This document shows positions 29,050-61,153 of a stretch of DNA of 64,000 nucleotides, piece after piece. The DNA is from Bacillota bacterium. Lineage in GTDB: Bacteria; Bacillota; Clostridia; Christensenellales; SZUA-584. Every line of letters begins with the position of its first letter. Within the stretch, counting starts at the first letter, position 1. The notes beneath the pieces were generated by a model. That model was given only the letters and a program-made list of their open reading frames with translations, made no database searches and was not told the origin of the DNA. The stretch lies in NCBI GenBank assembly GCA_023406895.1, contig JAEXTV010000031.1:110603-174602 (forward strand). The letters run 5' to 3'. The translations under genes and the position numbers were made by a program.

Positions 29050-29508
29050 ATGGAGAACCGACTTAAAGGCTGCGCCGGCGTCAAAATTCTTATTGTTACA
29101 CTTATCTATTTGTTCGCGGCACTGATCGTTGATCAAAAGCTTGCGCCCATGTTTCGCATCGTACCCGACAAAAGCATTCTTTTAAACGCGCTCGGTATCA
29201 TAATTCTCACGCTTGGGCTTTTTGCCGATTTTGCCGCTTTGTCCGCCATGCGACGCGCGCGCGATGAGGGCAGGCTCGCGACAACAGGGCTGTACCGTAT
29301 TGTTCACGATCCGATGTACATGTCGCAGATCTTTCTCATTCTGCCCGGCGCCATGCTGATTGTGAATTCGTGGCTCGGGCTGACCACAATGATCCCGGCT
29401 TACTTGGCGTATAAGGTTTTCACGCGTAAGGAACACCGGGTGCTGAGGGAGACATTCGGGCAGGCCTACACAGAGTACGAGAAAACGATACTGATTCCGT
29501 TTTTGTAA
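29050..29508 (+). CDS. Isoprenylcysteine carboxyl methyltransferase (ICMT/PEMT) family membrane protein
   Basis: 152 aa, 4 TM helices. Motif TTGLYRIVHDPMY and C-terminal E...FG..Y..Y. Confidence 0.75.
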   Translation: MENRLKGCAGVKILIVTLIYLFAALIVDQKLAPMFRIVPDKSILLNALGIIILTLGLFADFAALSAMRRARDEGRLATTGLYRIVHDPMYMSQIFLILPGAMLIVNSWLGLTTMIPAYLAYKVFTRKEHRVLRETFGQAYTEYEKTILIPFL

Positions 29509-29530
29509 AGCGATTTTATAGATTTTTGCA

Positions 29531-29860
29531 AACACAAAGGGCAGCAGAAATATTGTCTGCTCTCCATCAACTCATCGTGTCACTCTGAACGAGCGAAGCA
29601 AAGTGAAGAATCTGTTGACGTAGCAGCTTTTATCAGAACAGAGTCTTAGTCCGTCACAGCCTTCCTCATAATGACCGGAATAGTGCTTCTTTGAAAACAC
29701 AAAGGGCAGCAGAGATATTGTCTGCTCTCCATCAACTCATCGTGTCATTCTGAACGAGCGAAGCGAAGTGAAGAATCTGTTGACGTAGCAGTCTTTATCA
29801 GAACAGAGCCATCGTCCGGCTAGAAACCGTCTTCAGAATGACGGGACTAGTCAGTTTCTC
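29531..29860 (+). repeat. Direct duplication, two copies with ~165-bp period
   Basis: AACACAAAGGGCAGCAGA.ATATTGTCTGCTCTCCATCAACTCATCGTGTCA.TCTGAACGAGCGAAGC.AAGTGAAGAATCTGTTGACGTAGCAG at 29531 and 29696. The first ~110 bp are near-identical, then the copies diverge. Confidence 0.85.
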
Positions 29861-29930
29861 TTTTTAATGAAAAGCGCCGAATTCCGAGAACCGGCGCTTT
29901 TGTTATGCCATGAGCCATGTTAAATGTCAA

Positions 29931-30557
29931 TCAGCATATGAAAACCTGATCTCGCCTGACGCCAAAGGATTCGATAAAGGCTTCGGCATCGCGCAGGCTA
30001 AAGAACGGGCCCGCCACAAATCTGCATCCAGGGCTAATGGATAATGGCTGATCCCCAAAAGCGACTGTATATTGGCAATAGTTGATGCCCTCCGCCGCGC
30101 TGAAAAATCTGCAAAGATAAACGTTGAGCGGGCGACGCGGCTGCGGTACCGGCACGGGTACGGGTATCGGACGTGGCCGTGGACGTGGCCGTGGTGGAGG
30201 CATCGGCGGCCTTGGACGCGGCGGTCTCGGCCCCGGCATGGGTGGCCTTGGTCCCGGCATGGGAGGTCTCGGCCCCGGCATGGGTGGCCTCGGCCCCGGC
30301 GTCGGCGGTCTCGGCCCCGGCATGGGTGGCCTCGGTCCCGGCATCGGCGGTCTCGGCCCCGGCATGGGAGGTCTCGGCCCCGGCATCGGTGGTCTTGGCC
30401 CCGACATAGGCGGTCTTGGGCGCGGCATGGGGGTCGGTATCGGCGGCACCACTGGTTGTTCCGGCAGCCCCGGCATCATCGGCTGCATCGGGGGCGGTGT
30501 CTCGCGTTGTGCGATATACGGGTTATAAAAATAGTCTTCGTCATCATACGGGTTCAT
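29931..30557 (-). CDS. Proline-rich repeat protein with a Cys-containing C-terminal domain, function unknown
   Basis: 208 aa. About ten tandem (P)GPRPPM(P) heptads. RBS GGAGGT 7 nt upstream of the ATG. C-terminal ~65 aa non-repetitive. Confidence 0.7.
   Translation of the reverse strand: MNPYDDEDYFYNPYIAQRETPPPMQPMMPGLPEQPVVPPIPTPMPRPRPPMSGPRPPMPGPRPPMPGPRPPMPGPRPPMPGPRPPTPGPRPPMPGPRPPMPGPRPPMPGPRPPRPRPPMPPPRPRPRPRPIPVPVPVPQPRRPLNVYLCRFFSAAEGINYCQYTVAFGDQPLSISPGCRFVAGPFFSLRDAEAFIESFGVRRDQVFIC
30200..30425. repeat. 21-bp tandem coding repeat, ~10 units
   Basis: GGCCCCGGCATGGG(T/A)GG(C/T)CT(C/T) units alternating with ..ATCGGCGGTCTC variants. The differences are largely synonymous proline codons on the minus strand. 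Confidence 0.85.
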
Positions 30558-30804
30558 TATTTACCTCCAAAACAAGTTGGACAGTCTTTATTCATTAGCG
30601 CTACAACGCGGGCAGTTTGCTATGTTTATAGCGCTGATGAAGTTGTATTCGTCAATTCACGCGGATTAAAGGTTTATAAAATCCGGCTGGTATTATTGTA
30701 TGCGCGGCGGGTGAAACCTGTAACAGAGCATACATGGATGAAGGGTGAGGCAGCAAGGAAGTACGTGGGAATGCTGTCTTTCTTGTGGTGAATGAGGGGG
30801 TAAA

Positions 30805-30833
30805 TTGAAATATTGTGTAAGATTTGATACAAT
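30805..30833 (+). promoter_or_regulatory. Sigma-A-type promoter at the left edge of the AT-rich islet
   Basis: TTGAAA (30805-30810), 17 nt, TACAAT (30828-30833). Confidence 0.6.
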
Positions 30834-30880
30834 AACTTATTGAAAGTAATCGTAGTATTTAAATTGCTGAGGAGAACTAA

Positions 30881-31468
30881 TTGGATACTTTGAATTTTGC
30901 TATTAATATAAAGACACCTTCTATAATCAATAATAGAATTTTAAAATTCTGCGATAGAATTGATACTCTTAATAAGCCACAATACATCAAGTGTTTAGAA
31001 TATAGAAGTGGTGAGGCAGGGAAATGCTTTGACAATGTAAGAAGATATATCTTGGAATTTGGGGGAGAGATGATCGTTGGGTGGAATATTTGGATTTATA
31101 AAAATATCTTTATTCAAGCTGAATCACATGCTGTAGTAGAAACATCTAAGCTTGGTCTTGTCGATGTATCACCACAAAAGGAAAATAGGGTGTTATTCCT
31201 TAAAGATAGTGGTCTTCAAAATTTAGAAAATCCCATTAAAAGTAGATTTGAAGTACTTACAGATTCAGAATATTCTAAGCAATTTGTTAATCTGTTAGAC
31301 AGTATTGATGAGAAACGTTCCATAAGTGAGGAAGGTTTTTATTTATCACAAGAAGAATTATATCTATATCAATTCCTAATTAAAAAGTTTTCAGAAATTC
31401 GTAAAGGTCATGAATTCTGTCCTTGTGAATCTGGTCTAAAATTTAAGAGCTGTTGTGGTAGAAAATAA
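30881..31468 (+). CDS. SEC-C motif protein, N-terminal domain unknown
   Basis: 195 aa. TTG start with RBS GAGGAG 6 nt upstream. C-terminal CPCESGLKFKSCCGRK is a SEC-C metal-binding motif. AT-rich codon usage unlike the flanks. Confidence 0.75.
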   Translation: MDTLNFAINIKTPSIINNRILKFCDRIDTLNKPQYIKCLEYRSGEAGKCFDNVRRYILEFGGEMIVGWNIWIYKNIFIQAESHAVVETSKLGLVDVSPQKENRVLFLKDSGLQNLENPIKSRFEVLTDSEYSKQFVNLLDSIDEKRSISEEGFYLSQEELYLYQFLIKKFSEIRKGHEFCPCESGLKFKSCCGRK

Positions 31469-31506
31469 TGATGAGAACTTACGATAAATTTATTTGAGGT
31501 AATTTT

Positions 31507-32778
31507 ATGAAAATTTCATTTGAATTTTGGTTAAATGAAAAAAATCTAAGCGCTAACACTAAAGAGTTATTTAATGAAGCAATAATCTGCTACAAAGCTG
31601 GAGCAAATAGAGCAGCTTTGCTCTTTTCATATATTGCTTTTATAGAATTAATTAAAAATCGTTTGCTTGAAGCCAACAAACCCGATGAAGTAACCCAAGG
31701 AGAATGGGATAATAAAAGGAAGAAACTGCTTGATGATTTTGAAGTCGATAAAGAGATTTTTGATATTTTAAATAGAACTGATAACAAGTATTTTAAATTG
31801 AACGACTCATTACGAAATCAAATAAAATACTGGAAGGACAGGAGAAATGATTGCGCTCATTTAAAGCTTAATAAAATCGACAGTGCACATGTGGAAACCT
31901 TTTGGAACTTCATTATGAGTAATATAAATAGGTTTTCTATAGTTGGAAGTCAAAATGATTTTATAAACAGGATTTTAAGGCATTATGACGAAGACAGCAC
32001 ACCAATTGGGAGTGATTTCTCTTCAATTGTTCTTGATATTCCTCAATCAGTCGATTTAAGTAACTTTTCGGCTTTTTTATTAGAATTAGAAGAAATTCTA
32101 TTGAAAGTAGAAGAAGAGCAATGGTTATATTATACTTATGAATATGCAGGTTTTTTTTATAGTATGTTAACGAAGCTTGAAGAGAGTTATAGTGAAATAG
32201 TAAAGAATTTTGTTCTTAGTAATAGTAAAATTTCTACAGAATTATTCGGATATAAACCTGAGTTTTTGATTTATTTCAAGAATGAAAATGCTGAGTATAT
32301 TAGACAACTATGGAAAAAAAGTGATAGCGTAACTGCAAAGCAAGCATGTGTACTATTGAGAAATACCATAGTACCTGCGAATCAAATAGATGAGTTAATT
32401 GAAGATTGTATTTATAAGAACAAAAACCATATTCCAAAAGTTGAAGAGCTAGAATTTTTAATCCCGTATGGATATGTAAAACGATTAAATTATATAATTG
32501 AGAAAGCGCTATCTGAAGGCAAGGCATTTGAATGGTGGCTAAAAGATAATAACAAGTTTATGAAGTTTTATATTAAATATAATTTTACAATAAAGAAAAG
32601 CGATATTATTGATATGTTTCTGAAAAATGTAACATACATTCCTGAAGGTGAACAAACTAGAGTGCTTTTTTCGTTATTTTCTGGTATTATAAGAGAGAAT
32701 GATGAATTTCTTGCTTATACTAAACAAAGGGCTGTTAGTCTAGGTGTTGATTTAGATAAATTACTAATGATATTTTAA
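31507..32778 (+). CDS. Protein with N-terminal HEPN-like domain (RRNDCAH), C-terminal region unknown
   Basis: 423 aa. Helical N-terminus with an Rx4H / RNxxAH-type motif at aa 112-118 (nt 31840-31860). AT-rich. Confidence 0.7.
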   Translation: MKISFEFWLNEKNLSANTKELFNEAIICYKAGANRAALLFSYIAFIELIKNRLLEANKPDEVTQGEWDNKRKKLLDDFEVDKEIFDILNRTDNKYFKLNDSLRNQIKYWKDRRNDCAHLKLNKIDSAHVETFWNFIMSNINRFSIVGSQNDFINRILRHYDEDSTPIGSDFSSIVLDIPQSVDLSNFSAFLLELEEILLKVEEEQWLYYTYEYAGFFYSMLTKLEESYSEIVKNFVLSNSKISTELFGYKPEFLIYFKNENAEYIRQLWKKSDSVTAKQACVLLRNTIVPANQIDELIEDCIYKNKNHIPKVEELEFLIPYGYVKRLNYIIEKALSEGKAFEWWLKDNNKFMKFYIKYNFTIKKSDIIDMFLKNVTYIPEGEQTRVLFSLFSGIIRENDEFLAYTKQRAVSLGVDLDKLLMIF

Positions 32779-32855
32779 AGCATATTATTATTGCCCCCTT
32801 TACAACTTATGATGCTACAATCAAATGTAGCTTTTCAAATGGAAACGGACTTAAG

Positions 32856-32883
32856 GCTGCGCCGCATAAAACGCAGCTTTTTT
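32856..32883 (+). terminator. Rho-independent terminator closing the AT-rich islet
   Basis: GCTGCG / CGCAGC stem followed by TTTTTT (32878-32883). Confidence 0.7.
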
Positions 32884-33012
32884 AATGCTTCGGGGGGTAG
32901 CGCTCGATCAAAGTTTTCTCATCCCTATCCTTTCCCATATTCCTCCTTGCACCTATCCTCCCCGCAATGCTATAATCTTTTATCGAAAAATCCACACGCA
33001 AGGAGTCCTTTC

Positions 33013-35169
33013 ATGATCAGCATCGCCAGCCAAATCGCCAAGGAACTCGGTATCAGGGAAGAGCAGGCCAAAAGCGCCATCGCGCTTATCGACGAAGGCA
33101 ACACCGTCCCGTTCATCGCGCGCTACCGCAAAGAAGTCACCGGTTCTTTAACCGACGAACAGCTGCGCGACCTTGCCGACCGCCTCGCCTACCTTCGCAA
33201 GCTCGAAGAGCGCAAGGAAGAGGTGATTCGCCTCATCGACGAGCAGGGGAAGCTGACCGACGAACTCCGCGCCAAAATCAACGCCGCGCAGGGCGTCACC
33301 GAGGTGGACGATATCTACCGCCCGTACCGCCCCAAACGCCGCACACGCGCCACCATTGCCAAGGAAAAGGGCCTTGAGCCGCTGGCGGACCTCATCTGGC
33401 AGCAGCAGACGAGCGACGATGCTGTATTACAAAAGGCTCAAGAATACATCAATGAAGAAAAAGACGTGGCATCCGCCGACGACGCGGTGGCGGGCGCGCT
33501 CGATATCATTGCGGAAATGATCTCCGACGATGCCGATCTGCGCGGCAAGCTGCGCGCTTATCTGCGCCGCAGCGGCGACGCGATCTCCAAAACACAGACG
33601 AGCGAAAGCACCGTCTACGATATGTACTACGATTTTAAAGAACCCATCTCAAAGCTCGTGCCGCACCGCGTGCTCGCATTGAACCGCGGCGAGAAGGAAA
33701 AGATACTCAATGTGAAAATCGAGGCAGAGGAGCAGGACGCCGTATCGCTGATGCACCGCGTCATATTCCAGCCGCGCTGGCAGAGCGCTTATCTGCAGTC
33801 GGCCATTGAAGACGCGTATAAACGGCTCATATTCCCGTCCATCGAGCGCGAGATAAGAAACGAGCTGACCGAAACCGCCGAGGAGCAGGCGATACGGGTG
33901 TTTGGCGAGAACCTCAAAAACCTGCTGCTTCAGCCGCCCGTCCACGGCAAAACGGTGCTCGGGCTCGATCCCGGCTTTCGCACGGGCAACAAGGTGGCCG
34001 TGGTGGATGCCACGGGCAAGGTGCTCGAAACGGGCGTCGTTTACATGACGCTCGAGCATCACGACACCGCCAAAGCCAAGGATTATTTGAGAAGGCTCAT
34101 CGAAAAGCACAACGTCGATATCATCGCGATCGGCAACGGCACCGCCAGCAAGGAGACCGAAGCCGTGGTTGCGGAACTCATCAAAACGCTGCCGAAGCAA
34201 ATATACTATCTTGTGGTCAGCGAAGCGGGTGCGTCGGTGTATTCGGCGTCGGCGCTCGGCACCGAGGAATTCCCCGAGTTCGATGTCGCGCTGCGCAGCG
34301 CGGTGTCCATCGCGCGGCGATTGCAGGACCCGCTCGCGGAGCTCGTGAAGATTGACCCGAAGGCCATCGGCGTCGGTCAGTACCAGCACGATGTGAACCA
34401 AAAGCGCCTCGCGGAGATGCTCGGCGGTGTGGTGGAAGACTGCGTGAACGCGGTCGGCGTCGATCTCAATACGGCGTCGCCGTCGCTGCTCAAGTACATT
34501 TCGGGCATATCGCCCGCCGTGGCAAAAAACATCGTGGAGATGCGCGAGACGACCGGCCAGTTCAAAAGCCGTGCGCAGCTCAAAAAGGTGAAGGGGCTCG
34601 GCGGCAAGGCGTTCGAGCAGTGCGCGGGCTTCCTGCGCATACCGGGCGCGGCCAACATCCTCGATACCACGGCGATTCACCCCGAATCGTACGACGCGGT
34701 GACGCGCCTGTTTGAAAAGCAGGGCGTGCAGGTGAAGCAGGAGAAGGACTTGGAGCCGCTGCGCGCGCAGATCGGCGCGTGGAACGTGAACGCGCTGGCA
34801 GACGTGCTCGGCATCGGTGTGCCCACGCTCAAGGATATCTTAGAGGAGCTCAAAAAACCGGGCCGCGACCCGCGTGACGCGTTTGAGCAGCCCGTGTTTC
34901 GCTCCGACGTGATGCACCTTGAGGATTTGAAAGAGGGCATGGTTTTAACGGGCACCGTGCGTAACGTGATCGATTTTGGCGCGTTTGTGGATATCGGCGT
35001 GCATCAGGACGGCCTCGTGCACATCAGCCAGCTTGCCGATAAGTTCGTCAAGCACCCGATGGACGTGGTGAAAACGGGTGACATCGTCAAGGTGCGCGTG
35101 CTGAGCGTGGACGTGAATAAAAAGCGCATCGCGCTCACAATGAAAAACATAGGCAATACATTGAACTGA
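33013..35169 (+). CDS. tex: Tex-like transcription accessory protein (S1 RNA-binding domain)
   Basis: Start MISIASQIAKELGI..VPFIARYRKE. YqgF/RuvX-like, HhH and C-terminal S1 domain pattern. RBS AAGGAG. ORF-track start 32791 rejected. Confidence 0.93.
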   Translation: MISIASQIAKELGIREEQAKSAIALIDEGNTVPFIARYRKEVTGSLTDEQLRDLADRLAYLRKLEERKEEVIRLIDEQGKLTDELRAKINAAQGVTEVDDIYRPYRPKRRTRATIAKEKGLEPLADLIWQQQTSDDAVLQKAQEYINEEKDVASADDAVAGALDIIAEMISDDADLRGKLRAYLRRSGDAISKTQTSESTVYDMYYDFKEPISKLVPHRVLALNRGEKEKILNVKIEAEEQDAVSLMHRVIFQPRWQSAYLQSAIEDAYKRLIFPSIEREIRNELTETAEEQAIRVFGENLKNLLLQPPVHGKTVLGLDPGFRTGNKVAVVDATGKVLETGVVYMTLEHHDTAKAKDYLRRLIEKHNVDIIAIGNGTASKETEAVVAELIKTLPKQIYYLVVSEAGASVYSASALGTEEFPEFDVALRSAVSIARRLQDPLAELVKIDPKAIGVGQYQHDVNQKRLAEMLGGVVEDCVNAVGVDLNTASPSLLKYISGISPAVAKNIVEMRETTGQFKSRAQLKKVKGLGGKAFEQCAGFLRIPGAANILDTTAIHPESYDAVTRLFEKQGVQVKQEKDLEPLRAQIGAWNVNALADVLGIGVPTLKDILEELKKPGRDPRDAFEQPVFRSDVMHLEDLKEGMVLTGTVRNVIDFGAFVDIGVHQDGLVHISQLADKFVKHPMDVVKTGDIVKVRVLSVDVNKKRIALTMKNIGNTLN

Positions 35170-57643: not shown

Positions 57644-58237
57644 ATGAAACGCATTTATGGCGCGCGCATCACGATAAAGCTGATGCGCGATTTTTTAATC
57701 AGCATCGGTGATTTACGCCGTGCCGAGAAAGACGGCGACATCGATAAGAAGTTTGTGAAGCGTATTATGCTGGCCGTGACGCATGTGAACGGCTGTGCGC
57801 TGTGCAGCTGGTTTCATACGCGCGAAGCGCTCAAAATCGGCATGCCGCAGGACGAGATAGCGCGCCTGCTTGACGGAGAACTGCGTGACACACCCAGGGA
57901 TGAAGCGGCGGCGCTTGTGTTTGCGCAGCACTATGCGGATACGCTGGGCGCTGTGGATGCCGATGCGTGGCGGCGCATCGTGGCCGCATACGGCGTGCGG
58001 AAAGCGCGCGGCATCCGAGCGGCGATTTGTATGATTATGGCGGGCAACGCGCAGGGCAACATCTGGGGCGCTTTTGCGTCCCGGCTCAAGGGAAAGCCGC
58101 AGACCGGCAGCAGCCTTGGTAAAGAGCTGGGTGTGCTCGTGTGCGATATTTTCGCAGTGCCGTTCATGCTCATCTGGGCGGCGTTTGCAGGGCTGATGAG
58201 GCGAATAACCTGGGCTGAAAGGCTGTATAGTCATTGA
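57644..58237 (+). CDS. Carboxymuconolactone decarboxylase (AhpD-like) family protein
   Basis: CxxC-type motif in VTHVNGCALCSWFH. C-terminal hydrophobic segment. Confidence 0.6.
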   Translation: MKRIYGARITIKLMRDFLISIGDLRRAEKDGDIDKKFVKRIMLAVTHVNGCALCSWFHTREALKIGMPQDEIARLLDGELRDTPRDEAAALVFAQHYADTLGAVDADAWRRIVAAYGVRKARGIRAAICMIMAGNAQGNIWGAFASRLKGKPQTGSSLGKELGVLVCDIFAVPFMLIWAAFAGLMRRITWAERLYSH

Positions 58238-58349
58238 TAGTTTATAAATTGCTAATCGGCATATAATATACAAACGCCTGATTTTGTATTTTTGGTGGTA
58301 TATTATGTATACAGAGAATGATATTGATAAAGAAAAACAAGGTGATAAG

Positions 58350-58502
58350 ATGTCAGCTTTAACTGAAAGAGTCTTTGAAGTGAAGCCTGATAAGACAAGC
58401 GAATTCATGAAAATGCTTAGAAAGCCCATGATTTCGAAGCAATTTCTTGAAGATTGCAAAAAGGCAGCCGACAGCATCAAAGATTCTAAAAAAATCAAAT
58501 AG
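58350..58502 (+). CDS. Small protein upstream of the GNAT toxin remnant, possible antitoxin
   Basis: 50-aa Lys/Glu-rich ORF (MSALTERVFEVKPDKT..) directly preceding the TacT-like gene. Does not visibly match DUF1778. Confidence 0.35.
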   Translation: MSALTERVFEVKPDKTSEFMKMLRKPMISKQFLEDCKKAADSIKDSKKIK

Positions 58503-58515
58503 TGCAGGTCTTGTT

Positions 58516-59021
58516 TTGAACACGATCCCGCTTACTGAGGAAAATACTGATATCATCAGCCATTTTTGCTGCGGCAAAGAAGGGTTAGACAATTATTTAA
58601 AAGAAGTGGCTTTGAAAGACCAAAATGATCACAAGGCAACAACCACACTTATCGTCAAGAATTACCCGGAAAAACGACACTCATAGGTTATTACACGCTC
58701 AAAAATACGTGTATTTTATTTCTTTCTGCAAATACCTTAAGGGGCTATCCGGCCATAGAAATTGTGTTTCTTGCCATTGACAAGAAATATCAAAGAAAAG
58801 GGTTAGGCAGTAAGATATTAAAGAAGATAATATATAAATCTATTGAGATATCACGATCATTCTCAGCAATCACAGTTCTCATACTATCTTCAGAGAAAGA
58901 TGTCGTCGGTTTTTATAAAAAGAATCGATTTATTGATTTCCCGGATGTCTTTGAGATACTTCATGAAGATTGCAGAACATCAACAATTCCGCTTTTATTA
59001 AATCTGCTGTACGAAGAATAG
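58516..59021 (+). pseudogene. TacT/KacT-like GNAT acetyltransferase toxin, frameshifted
   Basis: HFCCGKEGLDNYLKEVALKDQ..TTTLIV and, in the +1 frame, TLIGYYTLKN..YPAIEIVFLAIDKKYQRKGLG..FYKKNRF match the toxin-GNAT pattern. Frames join at the A5 run 58670-58674; premature TAG at 58684. Confidence 0.75.
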
Positions 59022-59132
59022 CATTATATATATTTCGTTTGATTTTGTATAATTAGATATTTTTGACTTTCATAACATTCCGTGATACGTTTAGTGCGGG
59101 ATGGATATATTTGCATGAAACAGCGGTGATAC

Positions 59133-59690
59133 ATGAAATTAGTAAATACAATTCTCAAAATACTATTGCTTGTACAAATTGCAATCTGCATATTGACACC
59201 ATTCGACTCACTTAATACTGTTGCGCCGCTTGCAATGACCTTTTTGTTTATTTCGCTGGGTTTTTGGTTGCAGATCGAGCCTTCCGTCAAATATAAGGAA
59301 GCCATGCAGCAGGTATCCGAAGCCCATTATGAATTCTCGATGAGAGTGTTTCGTATGAAACCCAGCAACACAGAAGTTGAGAATGCCGGCAAAGCACGTT
59401 TGCAAGCGAGCGTTATTTTTGGCTCCATTTTTATTTCCATTGCATTGATTGTTTACATCGTGGTTTTCCTTGTCTATATAGATAACAATTTTTCATATTT
59501 AATTTTCTACTTTTTCAAACCAACGAGGATAATCGGAGCTCTCATTTTGTTATCAAGCTGCGGGTTGCTGATTGATCGAAAAGTAAAAAACAAGAGGAAT
59601 AAAGAAAAACTATTTTCCGAGGCGAACATCTCGCAAACCGGGCTTATCATAGAAAACATTCTGTTATCTATGATCACTTTTATTTATTGA
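59133..59690 (+). CDS. Hypothetical membrane protein (AT-rich islet)
   Basis: 185 aa, four hydrophobic helices, AT-rich codons. Confidence 0.55.
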   Translation: MKLVNTILKILLLVQIAICILTPFDSLNTVAPLAMTFLFISLGFWLQIEPSVKYKEAMQQVSEAHYEFSMRVFRMKPSNTEVENAGKARLQASVIFGSIFISIALIVYIVVFLVYIDNNFSYLIFYFFKPTRIIGALILLSSCGLLIDRKVKNKRNKEKLFSEANISQTGLIIENILLSMITFIY

Positions 59691-59735
59691 TTCAAGAAAA
59701 CAAAAGGATAAGTCTGTGATAGAAGAATGCCGCTG

Positions 59736-59744
59736 TGGTATAAT
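59736..59744 (+). promoter_or_regulatory. Extended -10 promoter element upstream of the AmmeMemoRadiSam genes
   Basis: TGgTATAAT (59736-59744), 24 nt before the ATG with RBS AAGGGAGGG. Confidence 0.5.
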
Positions 59745-59767
59745 ATGGCCAAGGGAGGGTTTGTCCT

Positions 59768-61153
59768 ATGGCTATTGAATACGCATGTATCGTTCCGCAT
59801 CCGCCGCTTATTATTCCGGCGGTCGGCAGGGGAAAAGAAAGCAAAATCGCCGCCACGACGGAAAACTATCACAAGGTTGCCAAAGAGATCGCGCGCATCA
59901 TGCCAGAAACCATTGTGGTCGCATCTCCGCATGCCGTGATGTACGGCGACTATATCCACATTTCTCCCGGCAAATCGGCGGAGGGCGGGTTCGATCACTT
60001 CGGCGCGCCGCACGAACGCTTCGAAAAAACATACGATACCGAATTTGTGAGCACGCTTTCGGATATCGTATTCGATAAAAACATCCACGCGGGCACCTTG
60101 GGCGAGCGGGACCCGGAGCTCGATCACGGCACAATGGTGCCGCTTTACTTCATCGATCAGTATTATAAAAACTATCGCCTCGTGCGCGTGTCATTATCGG
60201 GTCTCTCGTATCTGGAGCATTACCGCTTCGGCAGCTGCGTGGCACAAGCGGCGCAAAAGCTCGGCCGCAAAACCGTGTTCGTCGCGAGCGGCGACCTCTC
60301 GCACAAGCTTATGAAAAGCGGCCCATACGGCTTTGCCGCCGAAGGCCCCGAATTCGACGAGCAGGTGACGGCAGCGATGCCCGCGGGCGACTTCTATCGT
60401 TTCTTCGATTTCGCCGAAACGTTTACCGAGGCGGCGGCGGAGTGCGGTTTGCGCTCGTTCATCGAAATGGCGGGCGCGCTCGACGGTCTTGCCGTGAAGC
60501 CCACGGCGTTTTCGTATGAAGGGCCTTTCGGCGTGGGGTATGGCGTCTGCGGCTACAAGATCGGCGCAGCAGACGAGAACCGCCGTTTTGCGGACATTTA
60601 TGAGTTGAAACAGGCGCAAATGCTCGCGGAAACGAAGGAGAAGGAAGACGCGTATGTGAAGCTTGCGCGGCTGTCGCTTGAAACCTATGTGACGACGGGC
60701 AAACGCGCGAAGCTGCCCAAGAGCCTTCCGAAGGACATGACAGACAGCCGGGCGGGCGTGTTTGTCTCGCTCAAGAAAAACGGGCGGCTGCGCGGCTGCA
60801 TCGGCACGATCGAGCCGGCTGAGGAGTCGATCGCGCAAGAGATACTGCGCAACGCGGTCAGCGCGGGCACAGGCGACCCGCGGTTCGACCCGGTCACGCA
60901 GGATGAATTGCCCACCCTTGTTTACAGTGTGGATGTGCTCGGACAGGCGGAGCCCGCACCCTCAATGGACGATCTGGATGTGCAGCGCTATGGCGTGATT
61001 GTCACCAAAGGGTATAAGCGTGGTCTTTTGCTGCCTAATCTTGAGGGCGTGAACACCCCCGAAGAGCAGGTGAATATCGCGCTGCAAAAGGCAGGCATAC
61101 TGCGCAACGACAAATACACAATGGAGCGCTTTGAGGTGGTGCGGCACAAATGA
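59768..61153 (+). CDS. Fusion protein: class III extradiol dioxygenase/Memo-like N-terminal domain plus AMMECR1 C-terminal domain
   Basis: N-terminus IVPHPPLIIP..ASPH..; C-terminal AMMECR1 pattern (GVFVSLKKNGRLRGCIGTIEP ... RGLLLP). Confidence 0.8.
   Translation: MAIEYACIVPHPPLIIPAVGRGKESKIAATTENYHKVAKEIARIMPETIVVASPHAVMYGDYIHISPGKSAEGGFDHFGAPHERFEKTYDTEFVSTLSDIVFDKNIHAGTLGERDPELDHGTMVPLYFIDQYYKNYRLVRVSLSGLSYLEHYRFGSCVAQAAQKLGRKTVFVASGDLSHKLMKSGPYGFAAEGPEFDEQVTAAMPAGDFYRFFDFAETFTEAAAECGLRSFIEMAGALDGLAVKPTAFSYEGPFGVGYGVCGYKIGAADENRRFADIYELKQAQMLAETKEKEDAYVKLARLSLETYVTTGKRAKLPKSLPKDMTDSRAGVFVSLKKNGRLRGCIGTIEPAEESIAQEILRNAVSAGTGDPRFDPVTQDELPTLVYSVDVLGQAEPAPSMDDLDVQRYGVIVTKGYKRGLLLPNLEGVNTPEEQVNIALQKAGILRNDKYTMERFEVVRHK

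Follow-up and report, generated by a model that had tools for sequence, protein, structure and literature searches.

Exchangeable-cargo defence hotspots are known in several forms, namely P2/P4 hotspots, chromosomal defence hotspots and integron cassettes. Prophages express accessory genes in lysogens from a position downstream of the repressor, and lambda rexAB are accessory genes of this kind, downstream of cI in the prophage immunity region. In SecA, a zinc knuckle of the SEC-C type binds SecB and ribosomes. Among proteins with a HEPN domain, the set closest to the locus described here is that of the stand-alone abortive-infection (Abi) and toxin proteins (AbiV, AbiJ, ApeA and the LA2681 type, in which HEPN is joined to helical repeats), as catalogued in PMC3710099. 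According to that catalogue, the HEPN motif lies at the end of core helix 3 or the start of the loop to helix 4, the residue after the motif arginine is usually N, D or H, and an insert is present between helices 2 and 3. For the SEC-C motif, our literature search on anti-phage defence found only Rugutis, a lactococcal single-gene antiphage protein of 359 amino acids (aa) with the motif at its N-terminus (PMC11381338; PMC13064643), and nothing that links SEC-C with conflict systems. Here we analyse an AT-rich islet of about 2.1 kb in a stretch of 64 kb, referred to as the window, from a Bacillota bacterium (assembly GCA_023406895.1, contig JAEXTV010000031.1). The islet places a gene with a SEC-C motif (gene 1) upstream of a gene for an all-helical, HEPN-like protein (gene 2), and it makes up the strain-specific cargo of a slot directly upstream of tex whose contents are swappable. 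On balance, and by a modest degree, we favour the reading that this cargo comprises an autonomous HEPN RNase of the abortive-infection type together with an independent mobile-element gene.

A preliminary description of this DNA, made from the sequence alone, had reported an abrupt change of composition at the islet, and this is borne out. The islet is about 29% GC overall, and the 1-kb windows across it (30.8-32.9 kb) have GC contents of 0.286-0.31, the minimum of the whole 64 kb, against a median of 0.52 (standard deviation 0.062; mean GC of the window, 51%). Gene 1 (0.304) and gene 2 (0.289) are flanked by a proline-rich (Pro-rich) gene at 0.64 and by tex at 0.59. Sister strains were located through the Tex protein, and three alleles of the site have been compared so far, that of the window and two designated L122 and L125. 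The slot is organized as follows.

30759-32924, no strand: variable slot between the Pro-rich gene and tex; in blastn comparisons with L122 and L125, the left flank is homologous up to 30758 and the right flank from 32925 onwards.
30766-30845, plus strand: conserved slot leader with promoter, from the promoter scan; the same sequence is found in front of other cargo in L122 and L125.
30846-32852, plus strand: strain-specific cargo proper, about 2.0 kb with GC of about 0.29, from alignments A11 and A12 and composition.
32853-32883, plus strand: hairpin and T-run, the likely intrinsic terminator of the slot, from fold energy; kept in L122.

The window matches a contig of a metagenome-assembled genome (GCA_023415675.1), and the islet is present in 9/9 contigs that encode an identical Tex. 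At the same site, L122-type strains, in which Tex is 98% identical, carry a gene for a 280-aa protein overlapping a gene for a 780-aa UvrD/GajB-like helicase (GC 0.31-0.33). In the L125-type strain (Tex 95% identical) the site holds overlapping genes for a methyltransferase-like protein and a DUF1848 protein, the latter matching the PADLOC model RTasDUF1848 at 1.5e-54, and GmrSD is encoded nearby. Different genes therefore lie between conserved flanks in close relatives, with breakpoints at 30758 and 32925, and the occurrence of other AT-rich cassettes at the exact site in strains this closely related supports the horizontal acquisition that had been suggested. As reported before, no integrase, transposase or recombinase gene was found around the islet, and no direct or inverted repeats flank it as insertion scars.

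The islet had also been credited with a promoter and a terminator of its own. Both signals are present. The promoter, TTGAAA-17-TACAAT at 30805-30833 with an upstream TG, matches at 10/12 positions in the promoter scan, and the terminator hairpin has a 9-bp stem and a 10-nt loop with a minimum free energy of -12.6 kcal/mol; it was overlooked by a simple terminator scan because of its loop size. Neither stands out statistically, as the AT-rich stretch holds 9 promoter-like sites where shuffled sequences predict 11.4, which is no excess, and the folding-energy z-score of the hairpin (-0.53) is unremarkable. However, the signals are not private to the islet. The promoter sequence (~30766-30845) is common to all three alleles, and the hairpin is kept in L122 with one compensatory change from T:A to C:G, being less clear in L125. 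As they precede and follow differing cargo, they belong to a reused slot and not to the islet alone. We propose that the conserved promoter would drive whatever cargo occupies the slot, and that the hairpin, kept in at least one other allele, would end the transcript. An Rfam search of 29400-33100 returned nothing above threshold.

Like the known defence hotspots, the tex slot is found at the same site in related strains and holds differing AT-rich cargo, defence-type genes included, with no internal integrase. It differs from them in that its flanks include a shared promoter (and a terminator in at least one other allele) and in its position beside a housekeeping gene, tex. Unlike integrons or P2/P4 hotspots, it has no attC-like sites and no phage or satellite backbone. 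The alternative cargo spans 2597-5771 of L122 and 3949-5807 of L125; the L122 pair of 280-aa protein and UvrD/GajB-like helicase does not correspond to any complete known system and might itself be a candidate for a defence pair.

A hairpin-rich element of about 165 nt was also noted near the slot. Two tandem copies lie at 29520-29855 of the window, between the PEMT gene and the Pro-rich gene, and a related copy lies directly upstream of the cassette promoter in both L122 (2295-2470) and L125 (3735-3850). The window has no copy at that position and no further copies elsewhere, and the element has no Rfam match. It might be a recombination substrate for cassette exchange.

Gene 2 and its predicted parts are located as follows.

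31507-32778, plus strand: gene 2, 423 aa with an ATG start; all-helical, with a HEPN-like N-domain and a helical-repeat C-domain.
31507-31941, plus strand: HEPN-like domain, aa 1-145, from AlphaFold2 (AF2) secondary structure and weak HEPN_Apea and AbiV matches.
31843-31860, plus strand: predicted active-site motif R113-N114-D-C-A-H118, from its invariance and a position that fits the HEPN rule of PMC3710099.
31955-32775, plus strand: C-terminal helical-repeat domain, aa 150-423, about 270 aa, from AF2; the best Foldseek matches are ARM/PUF/importin solenoids at E>0.01.

A sequence search returned 76 homologues of gene 2, nearly all of 415-430 aa, and scans of genomes and viral contigs added a further 80 species-level loci and 12 prophage-like loci with relatives. 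The family is spread over Bacteroidota, Bacillota, Myxococcota, Chloroflexota, Desulfobacterota, Planctomycetota, Fusobacteriota and one haloarchaeal contig, and public records label it only as "hypothetical protein". A full-length relative is carried by a 2.4-kb contig of Salarchaeum sp. (L008), reflecting either inter-domain transfer or contamination. Eight homologues (P0011, P0015, P0017, P0018, P0022, P0027, P0038 and P0075) bear the precomputed Pfam accession PF27235.1, for which a literature search found no publication.

The preliminary description had pointed to RRNDCAH at aa 112-118 of gene 2 as a HEPN signature. The motif is there, within YWKDRRNDCAHxK, and its conservation holds across the family: R113, N114, C116, H118 and K120 are invariant in an alignment of 36 sequences from many phyla. 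It has the R-x4-6-H form of HEPN proteins with a polar residue after the arginine. The AF2 model of gene 2 is all-helical (predicted local distance difference test score, pLDDT, 91.7), with N-domain helices at 16-30 and 34-55, an insert at 64-88 and further helices at 100-117 and 126-142. The motif falls at the end of helix 100-117 or the start of the loop to helix 126-142, and the order of secondary-structure elements alone, without three-dimensional superposition, agrees with HEPN topology. Gene 2 therefore resembles the HEPN Abi and toxin proteins in being all-helical, in placing R-x4-H at the end of core helix 3 and in having a polar residue after the arginine, and it resembles the LA2681 family in the fusion of its HEPN-like domain to a helical-repeat domain. 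Unlike those proteins, it reaches the cut-off of none of the Pfam, NCBIfam and PADLOC models tested. Because motif and topology fit but no score is significant, we describe gene 2 only as a helical-repeat domain joined to a likely HEPN domain; of the signature proposed earlier, the invariant R-x4-H at the expected position stands, and a significant profile or fold match does not. The protein belongs to no modelled family, and its architecture is closest to the HEPN-plus-repeat families of PMC3710099.

The points that weigh against the reading we favour begin with this assignment. The Pfam HEPN_Apea match has an E of only 0.1 (aa 58-125) and is weak in 5/36 members, and the NCBIfam AbiV match (aa 14-73) has E=0.017 with 15.4 bits against a cut-off of 27, being weak in 3/36. 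The two matches fall on complementary halves of the N-domain. A PDB sequence search with the N-domain profile was empty, and Foldseek searches of the PDB and BFVD with the full-length model gave only weak solenoids, the best at E>0.01, matches that are driven by the C-domain of about 270 aa. One explanation for these data is that gene 2 is not a nuclease, and that RNxxAH is a binding or structural motif in a regulatory helical-repeat protein that binds RNA or protein. The missing HEPN match would fit this, as would the nature of the top fold matches, which are RNA- or protein-binding solenoids (PUF, Nop9, RESC and importin), all of them weak, and the lack of a conserved acidic residue in helix 2. 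However, invariant R, N and H with the spacing and position of HEPN are hard to explain otherwise, and the genomic contexts are those of conflict genes, so that we regard a non-nuclease as highly improbable. An hhalign comparison of the HEPN-like profile with two single neighbour proteins that possibly carry an AbiJ-type HEPN domain gave no signal.

Placement of gene 2 in an established HEPN class was also considered. Membership of the ApeA class fails. AbiV lacks the canonical histidine and needs an RNA antitoxin encoded by repeats, whereas gene 2 has the histidine and no such repeats were found; Tandem Repeats Finder, applied to the flanks of about 85 gene-2 homologues (800 nt on the upstream and 500 nt on the downstream side), found no consistent tandem repeats of the AbiV/AbiF type. 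A type III toxin-antitoxin system of the AbiV kind was rejected on this ground, on a model score below cut-off and on the length of only 38 nt available upstream of gene 2. The HEPN-MNT type was rejected as well, since no nucleotidyltransferase is encoded among the neighbours of gene-2 relatives and gene 1 has no nucleotidyltransferase match. With PADLOC-DB 2.0, gene 2 gave no match and gene 1 matched 'E2' models through its SEC-C tail only, in keeping with the preliminary description, which did not recognize the gene pairing as any named defence system.

Neighbourhoods of gene-2 relatives were surveyed through 142 immediate neighbours at 80 species-level loci. PLDc_2, DUF3732/LmuB, GmrSD_N, AAA_15/AAA_21/OLD-TOPRIM, N6_Mtase, ResIII and AbiH recur among the immediate neighbours, together with SLFN helicase, integrases and helix-turn-helix (HTH) regulators. 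One relative (L095) is set among RelA_SpoT, AbiTii, HD, SIR2_2 and OLD genes, and another (L130) adjoins SieB and TIR_2. No neighbour is conserved across the family; even the tightly coupled upstream genes vary (LmuB, DUF433, XRE HTH, AbiJ_NTD3, GmrSD or a restriction-modification specificity subunit). These restriction and defence neighbourhoods and the patchy phyletic spread are again features of the HEPN Abi and toxin proteins, and gene 2 has the profile of an autonomous gene travelling with defence islands. In three loci from Hymenobacter and Chryseobacterium (L037, L059 and L079) the relatives lie 1-47 nt downstream of LmuB, as if appended to a Lamassu operon.

The contexts are not uniform, and here too there are points on the other side. 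Many gene-2 relatives lie among ordinary metabolic genes, none is encoded by a phage genome in INPHARED (curated phage genomes), and the alternative cassettes of the sister strains are themselves only candidate defence genes. Another possibility is that the cargo is not anti-phage, being instead a selfish toxin-type or addiction gene, or mobile baggage without benefit to the host, that is carried by hotspot recombination. HEPN proteins often serve as the toxin in toxin-antitoxin modules (PMC3710099), relatives are found on plasmids, on phage-plasmids or beside recombinases, and the relatives with ordinary neighbours would also fit. However, the family has no conserved cognate antitoxin, neither an MNT partner nor tandem RNA repeats, gene 2 is intact in all 9 contigs of the strain group, and the neighbours of its relatives are enriched for bona fide defence genes; we consider selfish cargo unlikely. 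Several close relatives of gene 2 are shortened to about 204-209 aa from about 425 (L005, 5986-6615; the cluster of P0008), which suggests frequent inactivation, as expected of a toxic gene.

If gene 2 is a defence RNase, as we favour, we propose that it would be an autonomous endoribonuclease of the HEPN superfamily, with the active site formed by R113, N114 and H118 of its four-helix N-domain. By analogy with other HEPN enzymes, it may cut RNA independently of metal after dimerization. The C-domain of about 270 aa could serve as sensor and autoinhibitor, keeping the enzyme inactive until an infection cue, upon which RNA cleavage would lead to translation arrest and aborted infection. In this scheme gene 1 would act alone, like the accessory genes expressed by prophages beside their repressor.

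Gene 1 was found to belong to a family even larger than that of gene 2, and its features are the following.

30881-31468, plus strand: gene 1, 195 aa with a TTG start and AGGAG at 30870-30874; uncharacterized N-domain and C-terminal SEC-C zinc knuckle.
30881-31264, plus strand: N-domain of gene 1, aa 1-128, with invariant C49, H83 and D95 and a nearly invariant E81 (alignments A5 and A7).
31418-31462, plus strand: SEC-C motif, aa 180-194, CPCESGLKFKSCCGR, from Pfam PF02810.

A word-based search found only 6 relatives of gene 1, and 1748 cluster representatives came from an exhaustive profile search. Of these, 740 score below 1e-10, and almost every one has a length of 180-215 aa; the family comprises more than 1700 clusters at 50% identity. 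The tail of gene 1, CPCESGLKFKSCCGRK, passes Pfam SEC-C PF02810 with 21.6 bits against a cut-off of 20.4, and the motif is present in 70/70 aligned relatives (best E 7e-11) with the knuckle cysteines (C-x-C ... C-C) invariant. Profile searches with the N-domain gave no Pfam and no PDB match, so that this part is still as unrecognized as it was first said to be. C49, H83 and D95 do not vary among 28 sequences and reach at least 90% conservation across 70, and C24, N52, E81 and a GGxxxxGW motif are further conserved. A low-confidence AF2 model (pLDDT 46.6), built from a 6-sequence alignment, has C49 where a helix begins and H83 and D95 within strands. The order Cys-His-Asp recalls papain- or transglutaminase-like thiol enzymes, which may serve as a lead rather than a result. 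Membership of YchJ, YecA or SecA was rejected, as only the tail matches NCBIfam models of the YchJ type (22 bits against cut-offs of 120-158), and a BppA/CBM_4_9_1 match, seen in 1/70 members and below cut-off, was taken as chance. Gene 1 shares with Rugutis a SEC-C motif, the fold of the rest of Rugutis being unknown, and compared by size and motif position alone the two differ (359 aa with an N-terminal motif in Rugutis, 195 aa with a C-terminal motif in gene 1). No Lactococcus plasmid was among the tblastn matches of gene 1 or of gene 2.

The two genes are co-oriented and 38 nt apart, as first reported. A relative of gene 1 or a SEC-C motif was found within 3-6 kb at 0/102 gene-2 loci, and a gene-2 relative at 0/52 gene-1 loci; the closest relatives of each gene, which are about 50% identical, either lack a partner or have a different one. 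The preliminary description had set co-occurrence elsewhere as one test of its two-gene defence module, and by this test the two-gene part is not supported, while the frequent location of gene-2 relatives in defence islands supports the defence part. Gene 1 and gene 2 look like two independent, widespread, unnamed mobile families that lie side by side, and not like a two-gene system. The shared signals, the 38-nt gap and the same GC, with no terminator between the genes, indicate that they are probably co-transcribed and were acquired together, and this would also fit a functional pair. Counting against independence as well, every slot occupant seen in the three alleles is a two-gene operon, and both families tolerate varied, tightly coupled neighbours.

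An explanation along these lines is that the islet is a true two-component system in which the SEC-C protein is the sensor, regulator or antitoxin of the HEPN RNase and the adjacent effectors are interchangeable. In addition to the close spacing, the single promoter and terminator and the equal GC, this could account for several neighbourhoods. Gene-1 relatives of 51% identity, from gut metagenomes, always precede the gene for an unrelated 286-aa protein by a gap of about 10-55 nt, more distant ones are followed by a CyanoTRADDas protein with two transmembrane (2-TM) segments or by a PDC-S50/SLFN_AlbA_2 protein, and the closest gene-2 relatives sometimes have a small, overlapping XRE HTH gene upstream, in the position of gene 1. 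However, the pairing seen here recurs at none of the gene-2 or gene-1 loci surveyed, both families are mostly solitary, the 27 prophage loci of gene 1 have no constant neighbour apart from the phage repressor, and gene 1 has no known antitoxin-like domain. A two-component system thus seems rather unlikely to us.

A bolder version would make the family of about 200 aa with Cys-His-Asp and SEC-C an unrecognized conflict component from prophage immunity regions and mobile elements, wired to interchangeable neighbours, and the islet the first SEC-C-guided HEPN system. The SecA-like zinc knuckle would then serve, for instance, to dock the protein on ribosomes or SecB, and the neighbours would be the HEPN-solenoid RNase here and the 286-aa, 2-TM or SLFN/AlbA_2 protein elsewhere. 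We consider this doubtful. The protein of 280-286 aa that follows close gene-1 relatives (L105, 5354-6214; L089, 2516-3358; 17 other loci) has no Pfam or PADLOC match, and together with them it seems to form a separate conserved module of two genes. It is absent from the window, unrelated to gene 2 by hmmsearch and hhalign, and unrelated to the alternative slot cassettes.

Returning to gene 1 as an independent mobile gene, its close relatives often adjoin large serine recombinases, and on Xanthomonas plasmids a relative follows a KfrA-like gene. In 9/27 prophage-like loci the relative lies beside a cI/LexA-type repressor, which matches lambda cI (PDB 3bdn, E=2.7e-24), and in four of these nine it is downstream of the repressor gene, by 13-15 nt or overlapping. 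This position suggests expression in lysogens and resembles that of rexAB-type accessory genes, whereas gene 1 has no sequence relation to lambda RexA/B and is chromosomal in the window, with no prophage around it. With its members beside prophage repressors, the family is a candidate for a function expressed in lysogens that could be tested at low cost.

Should gene 2 prove to be an active RNase of defence, the anti-phage repertoire would gain a widespread HEPN family that is annotated as hypothetical and absent from PADLOC. The slot upstream of tex offers a compact natural "expression site" in which to mine candidate genes in this uncultured gut or fermenter lineage of Clostridia. Current ideas are not overturned by the locus but known patterns are extended, for it holds two uncharacterized candidate families in a verified variable site and is not a new class of system.

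Two further features of the window were noted. The Pro-rich gene (29931-30557, minus strand) consists of 21-nt tandem repeats encoding PRPPMPG units, with GC of up to 0.78, and its length varies, the product being 208 aa in the window against 178 aa in the sister strains with 98% identical Tex. A second AT-rich patch lies at ~58100-59900, where GC in 1-kb windows is 0.34-0.38 and a 185-aa membrane-like open reading frame is found at 59133-59690; this patch, too, may have been acquired as cargo.

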